Source: Psammoneis japonica (Eukaryota). From it: 39,446 nucleotides of DNA. The position numbers were made by a program, and so were the translations under genes. Shown here piece after piece: positions 12,628-36,890 of this stretch (position 1 is its first letter; each line of letters starts with the position of its first letter). The notes beneath the pieces are model-generated. The model was not told where the DNA came from. It searched no databases and was given only the letters and a program-made list of their open reading frames with translations. The stretch spans positions 248,001-287,446 of the forward strand of contig QPGO01000106.1 in NCBI GenBank assembly GCA_008632985.1, in the 5' to 3' direction.

Positions 12628-14250
12628 ATGAGTGCAATTGTTGATGCACTCAAAGACACCGTACGGGTCTGCATCGAGATCTACAATGTTTACAAGACGG
12701 TGAAAATCATGCCCGACTTGGCCCACAACCTCGTGGGCCGTGTAGAGTTGTTTGAGCCGCGACTCAACCAGCTTTTGAAAAACCCACCAAGACGATCAGA
12801 CCTCGTCGATCCTCTACCTCATGTTGAGAGAATGAGCGACGTCTTACATGAGACCAAGGAGTACTTGAACAAACTCAAGGACGACTCTTTCAAGAAGAAG
12901 TTTGTGAATCGTGCGTTCTATCGCAGTCTCCTGAACGAGTATGAGGAGCTCAACATGAAGCTCAACACGTGTCGTGATGATCTCAAGTTTGACTTTGAGT
13001 TTGACCTCGCAGCTGAAAGGAGCGCTTTTGAGAACGAAGCCAAGGGACTCCTGTTTTGCCTACTCGAGCATCAAGAAGATCACGGGCAAGAGCAGCGTGC
13101 CATCCGAGATACTCTTGCTGAAATCCTGCAGTTCCTTCAGGAGCACCTAGGTATGGGCCTTAACCGACACAACAGTCCTACTATTGAAGCTGCATCTGTC
13201 TTTGTGGATGAAAGTTATTCTACTGCGTCCACTTCGCAGTCGATAGTTTTGGAACAGATCGCTCTCGAATACGAAATCCCCCCGTCTAAGATTCATATCA
13301 GTGGTCAAGTCGTTGGAGAGGGCACTTTTGGTGTTGTCATCAAGGCAGTCTACATGAAAAAAGATATTGTCCTCAAGACACCACACAATGCCGATGACGA
13401 TATTTTGGAGGAGCTCATTAGTCAAGAACGATGCAGCAGCTCTGCCTATGTTGCGAGCGCCTTTGGATATACCCACGCCCCCAACGGTCTTCGTTCCATC
13501 GTTATTGAGTATGCACCATGTGGATCGCTTGCCAACCTCTTGCATGCCGCATCTGGAAACAATGGACAGCTTTCCGTCCAGTCCACTGCGCAGAACGACG
13601 ACAGGTGTCTCGAGGGTTTTCTTCCAGTCCACGGTATTCTCCAGATGCTTTACATGATTGCTCTTGGAATTGAATTCATACACCAACGCCGAATCATTCA
13701 TCGCGATATCAAGCCAGATAATATCCTTTTGGGCGATAACCTTATTCCTAAGCTGAGTGATTTCGGGTCTGCACGAAAGCTATCCAACAGTGCCACTCAC
13801 GCGACGGGGTCGCCTGCTGGGTCTATTTACTACATGGCCCCCGAAACACTCTCGGTTATGCAAGAAGGTGTGAAGGGCCATTATTCGTTCACGGTTGACC
13901 AGTACAGTTTTGGAGCGATCGTTACAGTCCTTTGTCACCGACTCTATGGAACTCTATACCGTGATCGGTCGCCACCCAAGACCGCCTGTCTACCGGAGGC
14001 GTTTCCCCAGTTGCTTGATGAAATAAAGGACAGATGTCTTGTGTCGAATCCTCGCGGTCGATATGGACGTGGTAGTACAAGGGAAGAATTGGTTTCGCGG
14101 GAGCTTGCAAAAATGTTAAGTCCCAAACTGGGACGGTCCGGTAATGCCGCACCGTTCCTTCCCCCCAAGACAGACTGTTTGGTTTTGACGTTGCTGCGAT
14201 TGCAAATGTCGCACGCATTTCCTTTGAAAACCGTAATCGTAAACGAGTGA
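12628..14250 (+). CDS. Protein kinase (TKL-like) with N-terminal MLKL/RPW8-like helical bundle; probably the 5' part of a longer gene
   Basis: Kinase motifs GEGTFGVV, VLK, HRDIKPDN, DFG, YYMAPE, DQYSFG and NPRGR are all present. The first ~130 aa are amphipathic helices (IEIYNVYKTVK...LVGRVELFEPRLNQL...LHETKEYLNKL...YEELNMKLNTCRDDL), resembling MLKL N-terminal-type domains. Confidence 0.85.
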   Translation: MSAIVDALKDTVRVCIEIYNVYKTVKIMPDLAHNLVGRVELFEPRLNQLLKNPPRRSDLVDPLPHVERMSDVLHETKEYLNKLKDDSFKKKFVNRAFYRSLLNEYEELNMKLNTCRDDLKFDFEFDLAAERSAFENEAKGLLFCLLEHQEDHGQEQRAIRDTLAEILQFLQEHLGMGLNRHNSPTIEAASVFVDESYSTASTSQSIVLEQIALEYEIPPSKIHISGQVVGEGTFGVVIKAVYMKKDIVLKTPHNADDDILEELISQERCSSSAYVASAFGYTHAPNGLRSIVIEYAPCGSLANLLHAASGNNGQLSVQSTAQNDDRCLEGFLPVHGILQMLYMIALGIEFIHQRRIIHRDIKPDNILLGDNLIPKLSDFGSARKLSNSATHATGSPAGSIYYMAPETLSVMQEGVKGHYSFTVDQYSFGAIVTVLCHRLYGTLYRDRSPPKTACLPEAFPQLLDEIKDRCLVSNPRGRYGRGSTREELVSRELAKMLSPKLGRSGNAAPFLPPKTDCLVLTLLRLQMSHAFPLKTVIVNE

Positions 14251-15995
14251 GTTCCAGCTTAAGTGCCTCACATTCGTCTTCACCACCGTCAGCTCCGGCG
14301 ATCGAGGAGGAAGATCCAGAAGAAGAAACAAGCGCGCCGAGCCGCACAAACACGTCGTCCTTGTCCTTCTCGTCCTCTCCCAGAAGTCAGACGGTCCCTT
14401 CATCATCCTTGGCAGCTCTTACGGAAGGAATCATAGTTTCGAGTTTGCCAATCGCAGATGAAGAAGCGGTGGCATCCATGTCTAGACAAGACAAGACAGA
14501 TAGTCTTTGTTCACAACACCCGATTCCCTTGGCACCTTTGATTGATGTCGCAGAAGAACACAGTAAGCGTCATCGTCGCAAACGCTTGGTTGTCTTGGGG
14601 GCTGCAGTGACAGTCGTTGTTGTGATCGTTGGAGCTGTTGTTGGAGTAATGTCAGGAGGTGGTGGAGGAGGCGGAAGTGCCACTCAACCTCCCACAGTTG
14701 CTCCCGCCACTCCCACTTCTACAGCATCTCCCACCACTGCTACTTCTACAGTTGCTCCTGCCACTCAAGCTCCTTCTACAATCATTACGTTTCCACGCGG
14801 TCCATGGAATCCCATTGGACAAGTCTTGCCCGGCAAAGCGGAAGATGATTATTTTGGCGAATCCTTGTCATTGTCCCGTGATGGTAATGTCATGGCCGTT
14901 GGAGCAGAGCAATCTTCCGATCCGGGCTATGTTGTTGCCAATCGATACAATAAAAACACCCAACAATGGATGCAAATTGGCCAAGAATTGATTGGACAAG
15001 ACGGCGGCGACGATTTTGGCCACTCTGTTTCGTTAAATGGCGACGGCACAATTCTTGCTGTTGGAGCACCTTTGAATGACAGTGGCGGGTTGGATGCCGG
15101 CAATGTACGAGTGTTTGAATACAACTCTGCATCTGATCGCTGGGATCAACTCGGTGGTGCTGTTCTTGGAAATAGCGCTGGTGATCAATTTGGCATTTCC
15201 GTGTCGCTCTCAGACGCGGGTGACATTCTTGCCGTGGGAGCGTGGCATGATTACACGGAAAATGGCTGGAATGCTGGATCTGTTCGATTGTTACAATACG
15301 ACCGCGGCTCCTCATCCTGGAAAAAACTCGGACAAACAATCATTGGCGAAGCTGATGAGGATGAATTTGGTTATTCCGTTTCCTTGAATGCACTGGGAAC
15401 CATAGTTGGCATTGGAATAACTGAAAAAGATTTGGGTGGAAACAATGCGGGTCAAGTGTCGGTGTATGAATACAAGTCTACATCGTCAAGATGGCATCTT
15501 TTAGGCGATCCAATCAATGGCCAAATCGCAGATTGTCGGTTTGGATGGTCGGTTTGTCTTGACGACAGCGGCTTGGTTGTGGCCGGAGGTGCACCTGGAA
15601 GCAACGCGAGAGTTTTGGTTTATTCGTACGACCGTTCGACATTGGAGTGGAATCAACGTGGCCAAACTCTCTTGACGCAACAGCCTGGCAATAATTTTGG
15701 ATGGTCAGTGTCGTTGAGTGGCAATGGAAATGTCTTGGCGGTCGGAAGTTTTAGTCATGACGTCAATGGATTAGATGCAGCGGGTCAAGTTCAAATCTTT
15801 CAGCACGACAGCAATGTAGACGAATGGATCCCAGTCGGAGATCCTTTGAATGGTGAGGCTCAAGGTGATAGATTTGGAACTTCCGTGTCCTTGTCGGCAG
15901 ACGGAAGTATCGTTGGAGTTGGTGCGAAGGAAGCTGATGTCAATGGCGTGGGTTCCGGTGGATCCGTGCAAGCATTCACAGTGAACAACAATTAA
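14145..15995 (+). CDS. Low-complexity linker, type II transmembrane helix, Thr/Pro stalk and seven FG-GAP (integrin-alpha-type beta-propeller) repeats; probably the 3' part of the kinase gene
   Basis: Frame open from 14145. KRHRRKR precedes LVVLGAAVTVVVVIVGAVVGV (~14586-14650). Seven repeats of D-x-FG-x-SVSL-x2-DG-x2-LAVGA. No ATG near the start of the frame. Confidence 0.85.
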   Translation, partial: CRTVPSPQDRLFGFDVAAIANVARISFENRNRKRVSSSLSASHSSSPPSAPAIEEEDPEEETSAPSRTNTSSLSFSSSPRSQTVPSSSLAALTEGIIVSSLPIADEEAVASMSRQDKTDSLCSQHPIPLAPLIDVAEEHSKRHRRKRLVVLGAAVTVVVVIVGAVVGVMSGGGGGGGSATQPPTVAPATPTSTASPTTATSTVAPATQAPSTIITFPRGPWNPIGQVLPGKAEDDYFGESLSLSRDGNVMAVGAEQSSDPGYVVANRYNKNTQQWMQIGQELIGQDGGDDFGHSVSLNGDGTILAVGAPLNDSGGLDAGNVRVFEYNSASDRWDQLGGAVLGNSAGDQFGISVSLSDAGDILAVGAWHDYTENGWNAGSVRLLQYDRGSSSWKKLGQTIIGEADEDEFGYSVSLNALGTIVGIGITEKDLGGNNAGQVSVYEYKSTSSRWHLLGDPINGQIADCRFGWSVCLDDSGLVVAGGAPGSNARVLVYSYDRSTLEWNQRGQTLLTQQPGNNFGWSVSLSGNGNVLAVGSFSHDVNGLDAAGQVQIFQHDSNVDEWIPVGDPLNGEAQGDRFGTSVSLSADGSIVGVGAKEADVNGVGSGGSVQAFTVNNN

Positions 15996-16029: not shown

Positions 16030-19000
16030 CTTTTGTGTCCAAAAAATCAACAAGTGAGTCCACCTGTCTCTCCTTTTTAGTTGTGCAAAATTCCCATCAC
16101 AAATCATTGGCTCGCCTTGCCCAGCACCTTGCTCGCTGAAAAATCTGTGAAGAGTGCCTGTTCAGCAGATGGTCATTGTGACTAAGACTCCAATGATGTC
16201 CAGTTTCAGGGTCCTGCTTGCTTCCTCCAATGGACGTGGTCTTTCATGTGTGTCACTTCTTTTTCATGGGCAGCTCTGCAGAGGGAAAGTGCCACCCCGG
16301 GCACATGAGTGTGCAGCCTGCATTGCTGGAGTTGGGTGCAGGTGGTTTTCACACCCAGTTGGGCAGCAATGGCAAGAAATTCTGTGTGCTCATTTTCCCA
16401 TGGGGGAGAATGCAAACTGCACATGCATTTTGTGTGGGGGCTGCGCAACTTGCCACATGGACACATTTTGGGAGAAAGTGTTGACCTCATTTGAGAATCT
16501 GATGTGTCCAGTCAAACACATTTGGACAACCTCCTTTGTGTGGCAGAGGGTGTGCAAGAAGATCACCCTGAAAAACTTGAGCTTGTCTCAAAGTGTGTGT
16601 GCACAGCATGAGGACAAAGTTGTGTTTTTTTGCCAGACCCAGCTGAAGTGCTTGGGTCCTTTGTTTGGTTGGGGCAGCACACAACTGTTGCCTTCATGAG
16701 GCCATCAAGCATGCCACAAAGCCGGGAAATGAGCGCAGCACATGGCAAACACCTTCTGAAGTGGGAGCGGGAATTTGTCAATGTTTGGTCAATTCCAGAC
16801 TTCATCAAACCATTTTTGACACTCACGCAGATGCTCCCAAATGTCAGCAGGTGGCAACAACATTTCAAAATGACAGACCTGTTGCGCTTTGTGGCAGAGA
16901 AAGCTCAACACAGCACACACAGCCAGTTTGCAAAAATCTTGCTCACAAGAAAGTGCTTGGCACCAAGAAGTGCACAATGTGCCAGAGGTGGACATGCAAA
17001 GGGCAAGGCCCTGAGAGGCAGTGAATTGAGCAGCAGCACAGTCCCTGGCTGCTGTTGCTGTTGCACCTGGAGGCTTGTCGCTGCCACCCAGCTTGCCTGT
17101 TGAGCACAATTTGGAGGTTGCCACAATGATGTTGGGCTGCTGCTGTCAGCTGCACAAAGCTTGCAATGTAGAAGCTGTGCAGCAGACATGACCTTGCTCT
17201 CTGCCAGCTTCAAATGCATTCAACCAGAGCAGCAGAAGGACAAGCACCTGTCATTGTGAGCAAAGGGCTCCATTGACTGTGTGCTCAACCCATGTGTTCT
17301 GCAACGGGAGAAAGTTGTTGCAGCAGCTGGCACACATCAAGAAGACAATGCCACCATGCCCCAGTCATTGCAGATTCCTTTGACTGAGTGGCGCCATGAG
17401 CAACTGTGTTGTCCCAGTGACACACTGACAAACATCCATTGCTTGGCACTTTTCTTGGCACAGTGTGTGATTTGTGGTGCACGTGGCATGTGCTGAGTGT
17501 GCAACATTTGTCTCAAAGGATGAAATGTCAGACACAACAACATGGGAAGCCACTGGAAAAGGCAGCTGAGACATGGCTCGTTGGGCAGGAAACCTGTGCA
17601 CAGGCATGGTGGGGCCCTGAAAAATCAAAAAACATGGAAAGGACACTCTGCAATTGTGGGCAGTTGCAATCATTGACCCCACAAAATGTGGGGGGCTGGC
17701 TCTGTTGTGCAGGCACTGCCAGAGTTGTCCACAGAAATGACAACAAAAAGCTTGTGCTCTCAGTGCAGCACACTGACAGACATGCACAGTTGCAACAAAT
17801 TGCACCCTGTCACCAGCAGCACACTCTGATGCTTGTTGTCCCAAGCCATGGAAAAGTGCGCAGCATTGTTTGTCCACTGTCCAACATTGCACAGCCCTGT
17901 TCAGGTGTGTCCAGGAAGCACAACTTCAGAAGGACGTGGCTCTCAACTTGGGCTCATTCAGAGGAATGCTTGGAGCTCCCATGTGCTGCGCGCACATTGT
18001 CTTGCCCCAGATGGCAGTGCAGCACAGCATGAAAACATTGCACGCCGGCACATGTGGTTGCCCATTTCATGCAATTGTGAAGGTGTGTGAATTGCCGGGG
18101 CTTTGGCACAGTGCAAAACCTGAACAAGTGAGAGTTTGGCATGACTCCATGTTTGCAAGACACCACAATTTCTTGGGAAGCAGATTGGCCTCACAATTTC
18201 AACAGAATGGCTTTTGGAGCTCAAAACTTTCTTGGCACAGCATCTCCTTGACAAGAGTGAACAAAAAGTTTGCTCAATGTTTTCATGTTGTGTGTTGGAA
18301 ATGTCATGTTGTCAGGGCAAGGAGAGCCACAATGTGGTCACAAATGCACACTGTGCATTGCTTGAGCCAACTTGCATTGAAACAAGTTTGTTGTTCCTTT
18401 TGCATTTCTGCAGGAAATTTCACCCTTTCAATTTTTTTCTCCCTTTGTCTGGACCCATGATGACAGGGGGGGGGGGGGTCACACAGCCTCCATGGTGGCT
18501 TTTTGTTGTGACAACATGGCCAATGGGGTCATGTTCACCTCTTCATCCTGCCAAAGACAAGCCTGCTAAATCCATTGATGCTCCTTTTCATGATGGCCTG
18601 GGTGTGAGAGCTGCTGTTGGCATGCAATTGTCATCTGTGAAGAAACTTTCTGCCTGCCTTGGATGCTCCCTTGGGCAGTCTCTTGATCATGCAAACATCA
18701 ATGGTGAAGAAGAAGAATCATCTGACCTCTTCTGCACTGGTGCTAAAGACGGTTCTGAAGAATTCTCTGATGACAAAGAAGAGTCTATTTTGGTTCTCCA
18801 TGGAATCAAGCAGCACAGAATGGCTGCCAGAGTTCATTCCCCTTGCATGGACAACAAGGCTGCCAAAGGTTTGCAGGTGTCAATTGACATGTGCACAAAA
18901 CTTGCCACATTGTGAATGTGTGCTTTTTCTGATCTGTGAAAGAAAGGCTGTTGAAGTTGGAGGCAACTCACTTGTTCACAAGCTCATCCACTCATGTTGC

Positions 19001-20150
19001 AAGGCTTGGCACCTGCCTGTCATTCATGAAAAGAAGGAGCCACCCAACAAACCCACAGCTGATGCTCCTGTCCCTCCCAAGGCTCTCACTGACCATGAGG
19101 TTGGTTCTCTGTGCTGTGAGAATCCAATGTGGCAAGCAAGTGCAGCCAAGGTTGCAGACAAGTTTGTGTCTTTTGGTCCAGAGCAAACAGAACAAACCAT
19201 GCAGTTAGCTCCAACTGTGATGCAATGACCCAAGTTGCACAAATGTTGGTGACTTGCAAGAACTGTGACACTCGCTGCAAACACTGGACACTCCAATGGG
19301 TCAAGTGTTGGAGTGGTGGCCATGCACCCTTGTTGCTCCACCCCAAGGCCCAGTCTGAGAAGTGCATTGGGGATCATTGAAAGAAGGAAGGTGCCTTCAG
19401 GTGCTGTTGCTGCAACACACCCATTGGGTTGGGAAGGAATGCAGGTGCCAACACAAGGTTTGGAAAGCAACACAATGAGCATGAGAAGTGTTCAAAACTC
19501 ACTGATTCCAAGCACATTGGCAATGCTTCCCATTCTTTTTGTCCATCCAAAGAAATCAGCACCAAGATGTGAAAGAGCAAATCAAGTTACAACAGAGAGG
19601 AGGATGGTGTGAGGATCTTGAGCTCATCACACTCTTTTGGTGGTCACACAGTGACACAGACACGTCACAAATTTGCTCACCTCAGAAGGCCCTGATGGCA
19701 TGTTCCAAAGCTCTTTGGTTCGAGTGTCCAAGAAATTGGCAATGGTTGGTCACTTGGCCAATCTCTGTTTTGGAGAAGACTCTCCAGGATTTGAAAGCTT
19801 TGGTTGGCTTCAGATTTGCTTGAACCAAAAACCAATGGCATCTCTCTGCAACTTTGAAAGCCACTGTCTCACAGGCATCATCCTCTTGTGCAAAGCTGTT
19901 GCAGATGTGTCAGTCAAGAAGAACAATGAGCTGCGTCAGTCTCAGCACCAAAAGAGGATGCACAACACACAACTTCTCAAACATCACTTGCCTTTTTCAC
20001 CAGATTCCAGTCCAGAGTTGTGGCACTCCAGAGAGCAATTGCCTTCTCCAGCCATGGAGTCCATCCTGTTCTTGCAGCAGCGACAACATCTGTGAGTCAT
20101 CCTTTGCAGTGATGAAGCATGGCACCCACTCTTGCTTTTCATGCCAATGA
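16030..20150. other. Heavily TpA/CpG-depleted block, probably a decayed large coding element (unidentified)
   Basis: Only a handful of TA dinucleotides in ~4 kb. ORF translations are Tyr-free and Cys/His/Gln-rich, with some protein-like remnants (e.g. EEEESSDLFCTGAKDGSEEFSDDKEESILVLHG). Family not recognised. Confidence 0.45.
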
Positions 20151-34697: not shown

Positions 34698-35387
34698 ATG
34701 GTTCTCACGCGACAGCAACAAACCGAAAGCTTCAAACACATTCCAGGCACTGTGCTCAATCAAGACGATGACAGCCCTCTTCGTTCTGCCCTGTCCATCA
34801 ACGGGATTGAATCGTGCGAGGAATTGTTCACGTTCTTACCCACCCAAATTGACGCCCTCACTTACAGAGACGGCGCCAATGTAGTGCCTTTGCCACGGAC
34901 CCACAGAAACCTCCTAGCAGCTTTGATCAGCTTCTACTTTGTCAAAGTTTGCAACGGTGATGATGTGACCAATGAACCCCAGTTGCTCACACCCGAGGAA
35001 TTTCGCAACTGCCGCCTTGGTCCGGACTGCTTGACCTCTCTAGCCACTGGCGCAGCACCCTCCGCACCTGTGCCGAGTCCCTTGCCATCCAAACCAGATG
35101 AACCCAGTGCCATTTTGACACCAGCCTTGCACTGTGCCGCCACTCAGGTGTCTCCTAGAAGTGGTGTCAGTCGCGCCCCGCATGTCTTGACCAACCCGCC
35201 TGCAAGCAACCTCGTCCCAGTGCAGGATTGCAGCCCCTTGCACAGGCCCGCACTTCGAGACCAGTTGGGACACTCCACCCATGGCTTCCAAAGCTGCAGT
35301 CTTTGCACCCCGCAAACCACGTGCTGCCAACCTCCACGTGTCGACTTCTGTCGCTGTCACCCTTCACAGTCTTCGTTTGGGAAGTGA
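34698..35387 (+). pseudogene. gag-like N-terminal remnant of the LTR element
   Basis: MVLTRQ...FKHIPGTVLNQDDDSPLRSALSINGI...IDALTY...RNLL resembles the N-terminus of diatom copia polyproteins (recognised from memory). Preceded by TCAAG-rich leader repeats at ~34565-34645. Confidence 0.6.
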
Positions 35388-35540
35388 TGGAGGTGACAAC
35401 TTGCTTCTCGCATCTCCTGATGGGGAGCCTCCTTTTCCGTCATTAAATCTGTTCACAACAGTTCAACCGGTTCATCAGATGGGGAGTTCAGGACATCCAA
35501 GCAGCTTCGTTGTCTTCGGATCCTCCAAGCATCGCACCAT

Positions 35541-36338
35541 GAGACCAGGCCTCCTGATTGGATGCCTCAAGTCTCGTACCTCGAGACTGGGCCTCCTGAT
35601 TGGATGCCCCAAGTCTCGTGCCTCGAGACTGGGCCTCCTGATTGGATGCCCCAAGTCTCGTACCTCGAGACCAGGTCTCCTGATTGGATGCCTCAAGTCT
35701 CGTACCTCGAGACCAGGCCTCCTGATTGGATGCCTCAAGTCTCGTACCTCGAGACCAGGCCTCCTGATTGGATGCCCCAAGTCTCGTACCTCGAGACTGG
35801 GCCTCCTGATTGGATGCCCCAAGTCTCGTACCTCGAGACTGGGCCTCCTGATTGGATGCCTCAAGTCTCGTACCTCGAGACTGGGCCTCCTGATTGGATG
35901 CCGCAAGTCTCGTACCTCGAGACTAGGCCTCCTGATTGGATGCCCCAAGTCTCGTACCTCGAGACCAGGTCTCCTGATTGGATGTCCCAAGTCTCGCACC
36001 TCGAGACTGGGCCTCCTGATTGGATGCCTCAAGTCTCGCACCTCGAGACTGGGCCTCCTGATTGGATGCCCCAAGTGTCGTACATCGAGACTGGGCCTCC
36101 TGATCGGATGCCCCAAGTCTCGTGCCTTGAGACCAGGCCTCCCAACTGGACTCTCAACGTCTCGTGCCTCAAGACCGGGCCTCCCAATTGGATCCTCCAC
36201 GTCTCATACCTCAAGACTTGGCCTCCGGATTGGATCCCTCAAGTCTTGCGCCATGAGACTCGGCCTCCTGATTGGATCCCCCAAGTCTCGCACCTCAAGA
36301 CTTGGCCTCCTGATTGGATCCCCGAAGACTCGTGTCAC
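35541..36338 (+). repeat. 42-bp tandem array, ~19 clear units plus ~4 degenerate units to ~36490
   Basis: Consensus gagactgggcctcctgattggatgccccaagtctcgtacctc, period exactly 42 (35541, 35583 ... 36297). Encodes ETGPPDWMPQVSYL. Confidence 0.95.
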
Positions 36339-36639
36339 AACACTGGCAAGTCCTTTTGGATCCCAGAAGTCTTGCAGCACGGGACTGGTTGCCCCAATCA
36401 GACATCTGCAGCCTTGCACCACAAGATGTCTTGCTCCAATCCGATCCCCGAAGGCTTGCACCTTGAGACTCGTTTCTCCAATTGGATCAGTCTCTCAGGA
36501 GATGCAGTCAGATTGGTGGAACACAAGACCACCGCTTGTGCCTTTGAACTGATGCTTGCTCTGTTCCCTGAGTCGTGCAAATGCCATGCCGCCTGCAATG
36601 TTGCCCCACCATTCAACATTGTCAACCAGACCAAGCTTT

Positions 36640-36790
36640 GCTCCTTCCATTGCAAGCGCGGATGTGGAATCCCACAAGATCCCAAGTGTGCCTTGAGCTT
36701 TGAAAAGCACAACGGCATCTGCGGTTGGGGAGACGCAGCTCATCTCAAGATGACCCACTTGGAGAATGCAACGTTGCTCTCGGATCTTGA
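36640..36790 (+). pseudogene. Remnant of the copia integrase-RT linker
   Basis: CKRGCGIPQDPKCALSFEKHNGICGWGDAAHLKMTHL resembles the CoDi-type motif YKYGYEIPRxYxxALxLDxxNGNxxWxDAxxLEMxQL with Y to C changes. Confidence 0.6.
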
Positions 36791-36890
36791 TCCTTTCTTG
36801 TCTCCTCATGTTTTGGTGCTTTGACTCCAAAGTTCTTTAGTCAATCCGAAGTCGAATCTGTTTCTGTGGCTCCTCAAGCAAACTGGGGAG

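Follow-up and report, generated by a model that had tools for sequence, protein, structure and literature searches.

Positions 12628 to 15995 of a 39,446-nucleotide stretch of the Psammoneis japonica genome (contig QPGO01000106.1, positions 248,001 to 287,446 of the forward strand; the whole stretch is called the window here, and its own numbering is used throughout) hold a candidate diatom gene whose most likely product is a single protein of about 1,080-1,130 residues that crosses the membrane once and has its N-terminus in the cytosol. Its parts, from the N-terminus onward, are an MLKL-like helical bundle, a brace, a protein kinase domain, a basic juxtamembrane linker, a single transmembrane (TM) helix, a Thr/Pro-rich stalk and seven FG-GAP_2 repeats (Table 1). 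Taken together they suggest a one-chain surface receptor kinase equipped with a membrane-attacking bundle of the MLKL type, a reading to which we give a probability of roughly 0.4.

The candidate gene comprises two open reading frames (ORFs). Frame A (P0001) runs on the plus strand from an ATG at 12628, which aligns with the first Met of two relatives described below (P0123 and P0124), to a TGA at 14248-14250 and encodes 540 residues. Frame B is open on the same strand from 14145 to 15995, with its stop at 15993-15995, and its product P0002 is the translation of 14148-15995. The first-pass annotation of this DNA had described two abutting same-strand frames that fuse; the shared strand holds, whereas the frames in fact overlap by 106 bases (14145-14250) and occupy different phases (positions 1 and 0 modulo 3).

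Table 1. Features of the candidate gene, in window coordinates, with the evidence on which each is placed.
Feature	Position	Strand	Basis
Whole candidate gene	12628..15995	+	ORF lists; discontinuity at 14141-14383
MLKL-like four-helix bundle, residues 1-118	12628..12981	+	AlphaFold model, Pfam MLKL_N, structure searches
Brace and linker, residues 119-215	12982..13272	+	Models, invariant columns
Protein kinase domain, residues ~222-497	13291..14118	+	Pfam PF00069, motif scan, structure matches
Kinase motif, G-loop GEGTFG	13315-13332	+	Motif scan
Kinase motif, K250 (IVLK)	13375-13377	+	Motif scan
Kinase motif, HRD	13699-13707	+	Motif scan
Kinase motif, DFG	13759-13767	+	Motif scan
Kinase motif, APE	13837-13845	+	Motif scan
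Frame A/frame B junction	14141..14383	+	Sequence; list of frame-restoring GT..AG pairs
Cytosolic juxtamembrane linker, ending in basic KRHRRKR (14565-14585)	14384..14585	+	Translation, charge count
Single TM helix, 22 residues, N-in/C-out	14586..14651	+	Hydrophobicity scan
Extracellular Gly7 run and Thr/Pro/Ala/Ser stalk	14652..14792	+	Translation; similar stalks in P0124, P0138 and P0174
Seven FG-GAP_2 repeats, expected seven-bladed beta-propeller	14793..15992	+	Pfam, motif copies

An N-terminal domain with a probable MLKL-type fold

An exhaustive phmmer search with residues 1-185 against 1.84 billion representative proteins (cut-off E<=0.001) returned three matches, of which two were taken as true relatives: P0123 (310 residues, 47% identity, E 2e-41), which looks like a truncated or mis-modelled gene, and P0124 (700 residues, 43% identity, E 1.8e-31). 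The third, P0125, a repetitive protein of 1,960 residues matched over residues 6-59 at E 2e-4, was set aside as unrelated. A word-index search with residues 1-225 at near lengths gave no match at E<=0.01 among 1,011 candidates. The same kind of search with the 540-residue frame at longer lengths gave 455 matches, which we read as kinase-domain matches because the best 120 of the 455 each cover at most 59% of the query and have no MLKL_N (PF22215) among their Pfam families. Scanning metagenomes of the Joint Genome Institute with the N-domain alignment produced 462 pattern matches, none of them confirmed.

The N-terminal ~175 residues are predicted to be all-helical. In an AlphaFold2 model of the N-domain built on a three-sequence alignment (mean predicted local distance difference test, pLDDT, 72.7; predicted template-modelling score, pTM, 0.68) the four bundle helices span residues 2-22, 29-51, 63-84 and 95-118, with a short capping helix at 88-91. 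In the layout of MLKL established by nuclear magnetic resonance work, the third and fourth long helices of a four-helix bundle are separated by a short additional one, and brace helices follow.

Three kinds of comparison bear on what this bundle is. The first is the Pfam MLKL_N profile, which matched the N-domain alone over residues 12-121 (E 1.7e-4), the whole 540-residue frame over residues 13-120 (E 0.0021, sub-threshold) and the relative P0123 (E 0.032).

The second is structure. A Foldseek search of the Protein Data Bank (PDB) placed MLKL executioner-domain entries at ranks 1-4, 6, 9 and 11 and AtMLKL3 at rank 21, the best row being 6zvo_A (E 0.059, probability 1.00, TM-score 0.64 by target), followed by 6d74, 2msv, 6ux8 and 4btf. 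With an aligner independent of Foldseek, run against 48,161 representative chains, the human MLKL N-terminal domain ranked first (Z 13.0, root-mean-square deviation 3.0, 136 residues aligned), mouse MLKL second (Z 12.6, 6.4, 146 residues) and AtMLKL3 third (Z 10.7, 3.9, 165 residues); the CC-R domain of the RPW8-type protein NRG1.1 came 14th (Z 8.1). When 993 Foldseek candidates were re-aligned, MLKL-family chains took ranks 1-8 and 10, that is, nine of the first ten, led by AtMLKL2 (Z 13.7), whose alignment of 168 residues extends over bundle and brace (model residues 3-174).

The third is a protein language model. For the N-domain alone the top clusters scored 0.93, with 188 and 179 of 256 features in common and MLKL_N annotated on 26% and 22% of their members; a plant cluster scoring 0.93-0.92 carries MLKL_N on 62% and RPW8 on 16%, an RPW8.2 cluster scored 0.88, and all ten best named matches fall in one family or clan. 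For the whole cytosolic module the scores were 0.99 with a cluster of basidiomycete kinases (23% of members with MLKL_N), 0.98 with chordate MLKL (98%) and 0.95 with plant DUF1221-kinases.

Since the Pfam profile, the structure ranks and the language-model neighbours agree, we consider it highly probable that the N-domain has an MLKL/HeLo-type fold. The first-pass annotation had read the bundle in this way and had named Foldseek as a check, and both the modelled four-helix bundle and the MLKL ranks bear it out.

Several results weigh against this assignment. The Pfam score of 21.5 bits falls under the curated cut-off of 27, and in P0124 the profile finds no match at E<=5. The model rests on three sequences and is of low confidence at residues 121-130 and 148-185. 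No Foldseek row reached E<=0.001, all standing at about 0.06 or worse, and in the re-alignment the first unrelated fold, HIP1R THATCH, followed at Z 11.1. Calibration of the structure tools indicates that mostly helical models, with relatedness unknown, may reach a best Z of ~14 by chance, so that structure alone is not decisive. Identity with the MLKL chains is 11-19%, and single-sequence and three-sequence-profile searches of PDB sequences with the N-domain did not retrieve MLKL, their best matches being the coiled coils of Sid, ROCK and EzrA (E 0.02-0.4).

These are the results one would expect if the N-domain were a generic helical bundle or coiled-coil linker whose likeness to MLKL is chance convergence. 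Such convergence would nonetheless have to account for profile, structure ranks and language model all pointing to one family, for a domain placed, as that of MLKL is, immediately ahead of a kinase, and for the likeness of the whole module to the chordate MLKL cluster; we regard it as highly improbable.

Brace, kinase and predicted self-association

The brace is formed by two long helices at about residues 125-147 and 154-172 (127-147 and 153-174 in the AlphaFold2 model of the N-domain), followed by two shorter ones. The most conserved stretch among the three relatives, FDFEFD..AERSAFENE.KGL (residues 121-141, bases 12988-13050), lies at the start of the first brace helix.

The kinase domain matches Pfam Pkinase (PF00069) with E 2.8e-30 over residues 226-436 of P0001, and the motif scan recovered the full catalytic set that had been claimed for it, including DIKPDN in addition to the motifs of Table 1. 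It is most likely a catalytically competent kinase, predicted to be of the Ser/Thr type. Its sequence is about equidistant from MST/STK3 and B-Raf (E ~1e-16 to 5e-17), and its structure about equidistant from Csk, FES, BRAF, plant RIPK, IRAK4/1 and mouse RIP3 (Z 25.6-27.1). Judged from sequence and modelled structure, it is a TKL/TK-like active kinase and not specifically an MLKL pseudokinase. When a model of both domains (pLDDT 74.8) was submitted to the two structure searches, kinase domains filled the best 50 rows, and full-length MLKL was not among these rows.

We also folded four copies of the N-domain with ESMFold2 and scored the result against three controls. The score was 0.68, compared with 0.00 for the best of the controls; runs agreed in at least 90% of contacts, and the pLDDT of the partners was at least 77. 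The score reaches a self-association mark attained by 21 of 30 proteins solved as same-chain pairs and by none of 23 solved as single chains; in eukaryotes the figure is 17 of 29, but only one of seven for proteins without an older solved relative. The predicted interface covers residues ~113-175 in register, with like-on-like contacts such as 163-163 and 166-166, and is modelled as a parallel bundle of brace helices. Two considerations temper this result. The calibration comes from two copies and holds only roughly for four, and the pass may be a memory of likeness because MLKL tetramers (AtMLKL2 and AtMLKL3) have already been solved.

The same findings fit a receptor that does not kill. The locus would then still encode one membrane receptor kinase, with the bundle serving as an autoinhibitory, oligomerising or membrane-docking module for ordinary signalling, such as adhesion or surface and cell-cell sensing, and with the kinase acting on other substrates. 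Because the kinase appears fully equipped for catalysis, downstream phosphorylation is the simplest reading of the output, and the predicted interface lies in the brace rather than in the bundle. Two features of the bundle speak against a harmless role: its nearest structural matches are executioner domains, aligned over 131-168 residues, and it stands at the N-terminal free end, as in MLKL proteins. Further evidence on this alternative comes from the ectodomain.

Membrane anchor, topology and ectodomain

The TM helix is strongly marked, with a top 19-residue Kyte-Doolittle mean of 3.05. Six lysine or arginine residues precede it within 15 residues and none follows within the next 15, and it is from this distribution of charge around a single TM helix that the N-terminal part is predicted to lie inside the cell and the propeller outside it. 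Frame A does not begin with a hydrophobic stretch like that of a signal peptide, the best window anywhere in the frame reaching 1.6.

The seven repeats are evident as seven copies of the motif FG-x-S-[VL]-x-L at a spacing of 52-59 residues, and Pfam FG-GAP_2 (PF14312) matches P0002 in six stretches with E 1.2e-27. They are expected, on their sequence, to form a seven-bladed beta-propeller ectodomain, and the chain ends three residues past the last strand region of the seventh repeat. The basic stop-transfer segment, the TM helix, the Thr/Pro stalk and the seven repeats had all been claimed in the first-pass annotation and were found again here, and its placement of kinase and bundle in the cytosol agrees with the charge distribution.

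Its description of the topology as inverted applies in part. The orientation is indeed opposite to that of plant receptor-like kinases (RLKs) and animal receptor tyrosine kinases (RTKs), but it is the rule among bacterial kinases of the PknB/PknD type. In these, an N-terminal cytosolic kinase is followed by one TM helix and a C-terminal extracellular sensor, which in PknD is a beta-propeller.

Relatives of the propeller are abundant. When residues 120-615 of P0002 were searched among subjects of 338-1,077 residues and 8,000 candidates were scored, 3,529 of these proved to be relatives at E<=1e-5. The top-scoring ones were Bacteroidota surface proteins of the type IX secretion system (T9SS; 36-41% identity), proteins from marine metagenomes and one from Aureococcus. 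No kinase Pfam domain occurs in the best 120 of the 3,529. As a separate observation, T9SS-sorted Bacteroidota proteins outscore Aureococcus, the single named algal match, for 14793-15992, which could reflect gene transfer or repeat number.

Two of the relatives, P0138 and P0174, follow the same plan: after a long N-terminal stretch in the cytosol come a TM helix, a stalk of Pro and Thr, and seven repeats of the FG-GAP_2 type. The cytosolic stretches (~180-250 residues) are unrelated, with no kinase domain listed for them, and one of the two is a coiled coil of high charge. Because these proteins pair the same anchor, stalk and repeats with unrelated cytosolic parts, the ectodomain looks like a reusable type II module that serves several outputs, and the comparison suggests a modular receptor family with interchangeable insides. 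This versatility likewise favours a receptor whose bundle is not lethal. FG-GAP proteins have been described across stramenopiles, with an expansion in a diatom parasite, in a 2026 study whose accessible portion does not mention kinase fusions (PMC13524835).

One chain or two products

Because frames A and B differ and overlap, a continuous protein needs either an intron or a 1-base frame correction. We enumerated all GT..AG pairs that give one open frame and obtained several, of which the most plausible are given here. One candidate intron, 14247-14383 (137 nt), begins with GTGAGT over the frame-A stop and ends, in the correct phase, with a pyrimidine tract and a CAG acceptor; a second, 14141-14292 (152 nt), also gives one open frame. 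A third pair (14141-14169, 29 nt) rescues the frame and was rejected, being judged too short for a spliceosomal intron. A candidate 1-base error or mutation would be a C missing from the C6 run at 14161-14167. The GTGAGT motif is not enriched in the window (25 matches, 26 expected).

Log-odds of codon usage, for which the two clear coding parts served as training set, came to +6.9 for frame B and -0.2 for frame A over 14143-14247, a difference too weak for choosing a join. For 14250-14383 they are negative in all three frames (-4 to -8 bits). Across 14250-14460 all three frames contain few stops, so that little weight attaches to frame B being open ahead of its ATG.

An argument for a single chain comes from P0124, which has in one open frame the N-domain, a kinase (with HCD in place of HRD), a basic stretch, a TM helix, a Pro/Thr stalk and the start of an ectodomain that is not FG-GAP. 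This order supports a single chain in the window, as kinase and TM helix share one frame there, and the family plan therefore has the membrane anchor after the kinase. It also hints that the ectodomains of the family are variable, FG-GAP_2 here and another domain in P0124. The post-stalk extracellular region of P0124 (~640-700) differs from FG-GAP and presumably resembles the N-terminal cap that precedes leucine-rich repeats in stramenopile proteins; the record ends at 700 residues.

The locus could instead yield two products, a soluble MLKL-like active kinase of 540 residues ending at 14250 and a type II FG-GAP protein starting at the ATG of 14478 with a 37-residue cytosolic tail, or it could carry a recent frameshift that splits an ancestral fusion. 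Part of the evidence goes against a single chain in just this way: a start and a stop are available to each frame separately, frame B would by itself be a plausible type II membrane protein, the frames differ while the candidate joins are putative, the segment after the frame-A stop scores as non-coding, and its scarcity of stops deprives the open upstream part of frame B of much meaning. Soluble proteins with an MLKL head and a kinase do exist in plants and fungi. Separate products fit less well with P0124, with a gap of only 227 bases between the frame-A stop and the first ATG of frame B, and with a consensus GTGAGT placed over that very stop and answered 137 bases on by a pyrimidine tract and CAG in the right phase. 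Moreover, the FG-GAP_2 relatives with the same stalk have cytosolic N-terminal parts of ~180-250 residues, not short tails. We hold two products, or a split fusion, to be unlikely, and it is quite probable that frames A and B encode a single chain; we infer a single transcript.

A further stretch in the head of frame B, FGFDVAAIANVARISFEN (14178-14246, after the kinase), bears a weak likeness to the FDFEFD..AERSAFENE motif of the brace; BLASTP gave E 0.026 with P0124 and 0.039 with P0001. The stretch could be a pseudo-brace, a second copy serving in regulation, or the likeness may be chance. The tail of frame A shows no likeness to P0124 (E 0.8). This comparison of frame-B head with frame-A tail, made post hoc, mildly favours an early frame switch.

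Surroundings of the locus

Among 18 neighbouring ORFs scanned, none had a kinase, FG-GAP or immune-type domain. On the plus strand at 17365-19491, long ORFs follow one another in successive overlapping frames (17421-18032, 17777-18460, 18145-18915 and 18641-19228), of which the two scanned gave no Pfam match; they may represent a decayed element or a frame-shifted gene. The region 35191-36824 is G+C-rich (0.576 at 35001-36000) and contains two overlapping ORFs of 453 and 467 residues in different frames with no Pfam match. An open frame of 536 residues at 2689-4299 matches lipoxygenase weakly and below threshold (E 0.0056; 15.7 bits, cut-off 23.6).

Related architectures

Among known architectures, the plant MLKL_NTD-kinase class comes nearest. 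Its member Pm13 (AelMLKL, from wheat/Aegilops) is a 476-residue protein for mildew resistance, described as MLKL_NTD plus serine/threonine kinase (STK) only (PMC10951266); like the diatom protein it combines an N-terminal MLKL-type bundle and a brace with a kinase that retains every residue needed for catalysis. To this plan the diatom protein adds a TM helix, a stalk and a seven-repeat propeller, and the sequence relatedness of the two N-domains is at the sub-threshold Pfam level only. The word "transmembrane" is used once in the Pm13 report, for another gene, Pm4.

The AtMLKL1-3 proteins (6lba, 6ka4) give the longest structural alignments, 165-168 residues across bundle and brace (Z 13.7 and 10.7). 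They were solved as tetramers, and the four-copy fold of the diatom N-domain also reaches the self-association mark in prediction. A role in immunity is reported for them (10.1101/681015). They are described as soluble pseudokinases (PMC10951266), with an N-domain classed as DUF1221 and, unlike the diatom protein, without TM helix or ectodomain.

Animal MLKL (4btf, 2msv, 6ux8, 6zvo) provides the best structural matches of the N-domain (Z 12-13.4, 131-146 residues aligned) and the same order of bundle, brace and kinase fold, in keeping with the language-model score of the module. It is described as soluble and as a pseudokinase that depends on RIPK3, another kinase, for its activation, whereas the diatom kinase has its motifs intact, is no nearer to MLKL than to many TKL/TK kinases and, if the frames are joined, is anchored in the membrane with an ectodomain.

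Bacterial Hanks-type kinases such as PknB and PknD share the predicted diatom topology, and the PknB kinase domain aligns at Z 23.3; they are not known to carry an MLKL-like domain, however, and have PASTA or NHL-type sensors instead of FG-GAP_2. The three parts of a single-pass receptor kinase, namely an extracellular ligand-binding domain, one TM helix and an active cytosolic kinase, occur in order at the locus and would belong to one chain if the putative join of the frames holds, in the N-in/C-out orientation noted above. The resemblance to integrin alpha lies in the seven FG-GAP-type repeats, likewise expected as a seven-bladed propeller. The diatom protein, in contrast, is without thigh and calf domains, has the opposite orientation with its TM helix before the propeller, has no known beta subunit partner, and its repeats match Pfam FG-GAP_2 and not the integrin FG-GAP model.

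The combination of an MLKL head with an active kinase is already known, from plant Pm13-type proteins and from fungal clusters. What is new is that the host is a stramenopile and that a module of the MLKL type bears a membrane anchor and an FG-GAP_2 ectodomain. A search of the full texts of one collection of papers found no MLKL-type bundle described in a diatom and none tethered to an ectodomain.

Proposed mechanism and its strength

The architecture suggests a mechanism in which the FG-GAP_2 propeller, held outside on its Thr/Pro stalk, would act as the sensor, with the kinase, the two brace helices and a free N-terminal MLKL-type bundle inside. At rest, the bundle would be kept against brace and kinase. 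Binding of a ligand or surface to the propellers would cluster the receptors; the clustered kinases would phosphorylate one another or the brace, and the brace helices would zip into a parallel oligomer. The freed bundles could then engage the inner leaflet of the membrane in which the protein is already anchored and produce an ion-leaking or lytic lesion, leading to a defence signal or cell suicide. The roles of receptor, RIPK3-like activator and MLKL-like executioner would in this way be united in one chain.

The steps of this scheme differ in strength. What the analysis itself gives is the set of domains and their order, a kinase with intact motifs, a modelled N-domain fold like that of MLKL and a predicted self-association. 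Activation by clustering and damage to the membrane are what we infer from the parts and their order, as would be an immune or cell-death role. A membrane-damaging or cell-death output is put forward tentatively. A further point counts against the scheme: an active kinase is unlike the situation of animal MLKL, which is released by a separate kinase. Plant MLKLs, moreover, are reported to limit pathogen growth besides having cell death activity (10.1101/681015), which would suit a bundle with a non-killing task. With the executioner-like matches and the free N-terminal end of the bundle set beside this, we think the non-killing receptor somewhat unlikely, and the one-chain receptor kinase with a membrane-attacking bundle is the explanation we prefer.

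Regulated cell death in phytoplankton shapes the endings of blooms, and to our knowledge few of its executioner proteins have been identified. In animals, plants and fungi, bundles of the MLKL type act as executioners or as parts of the immune system. Should the fusion prove real, the locus would offer a candidate, open to direct testing, for a protein that triggers stramenopile cell death from the surface, as well as a natural experiment on the control of an MLKL-type head by a kinase in the same chain; if the bundle is only regulatory, it would mean that the MLKL head has non-lethal uses. A wider and rather doubtful possibility is that diatoms possess a small family of surface "death receptors" that combine sensing, kinase activation and MLKL-type attack in one polypeptide with exchangeable ectodomains. 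Were this so, such proteins would condense the receptor-RIPK3-MLKL axis of necroptosis into one molecule and could couple the recognition of parasites, viruses, bacteria or neighbouring cells directly to phytoplankton cell death.

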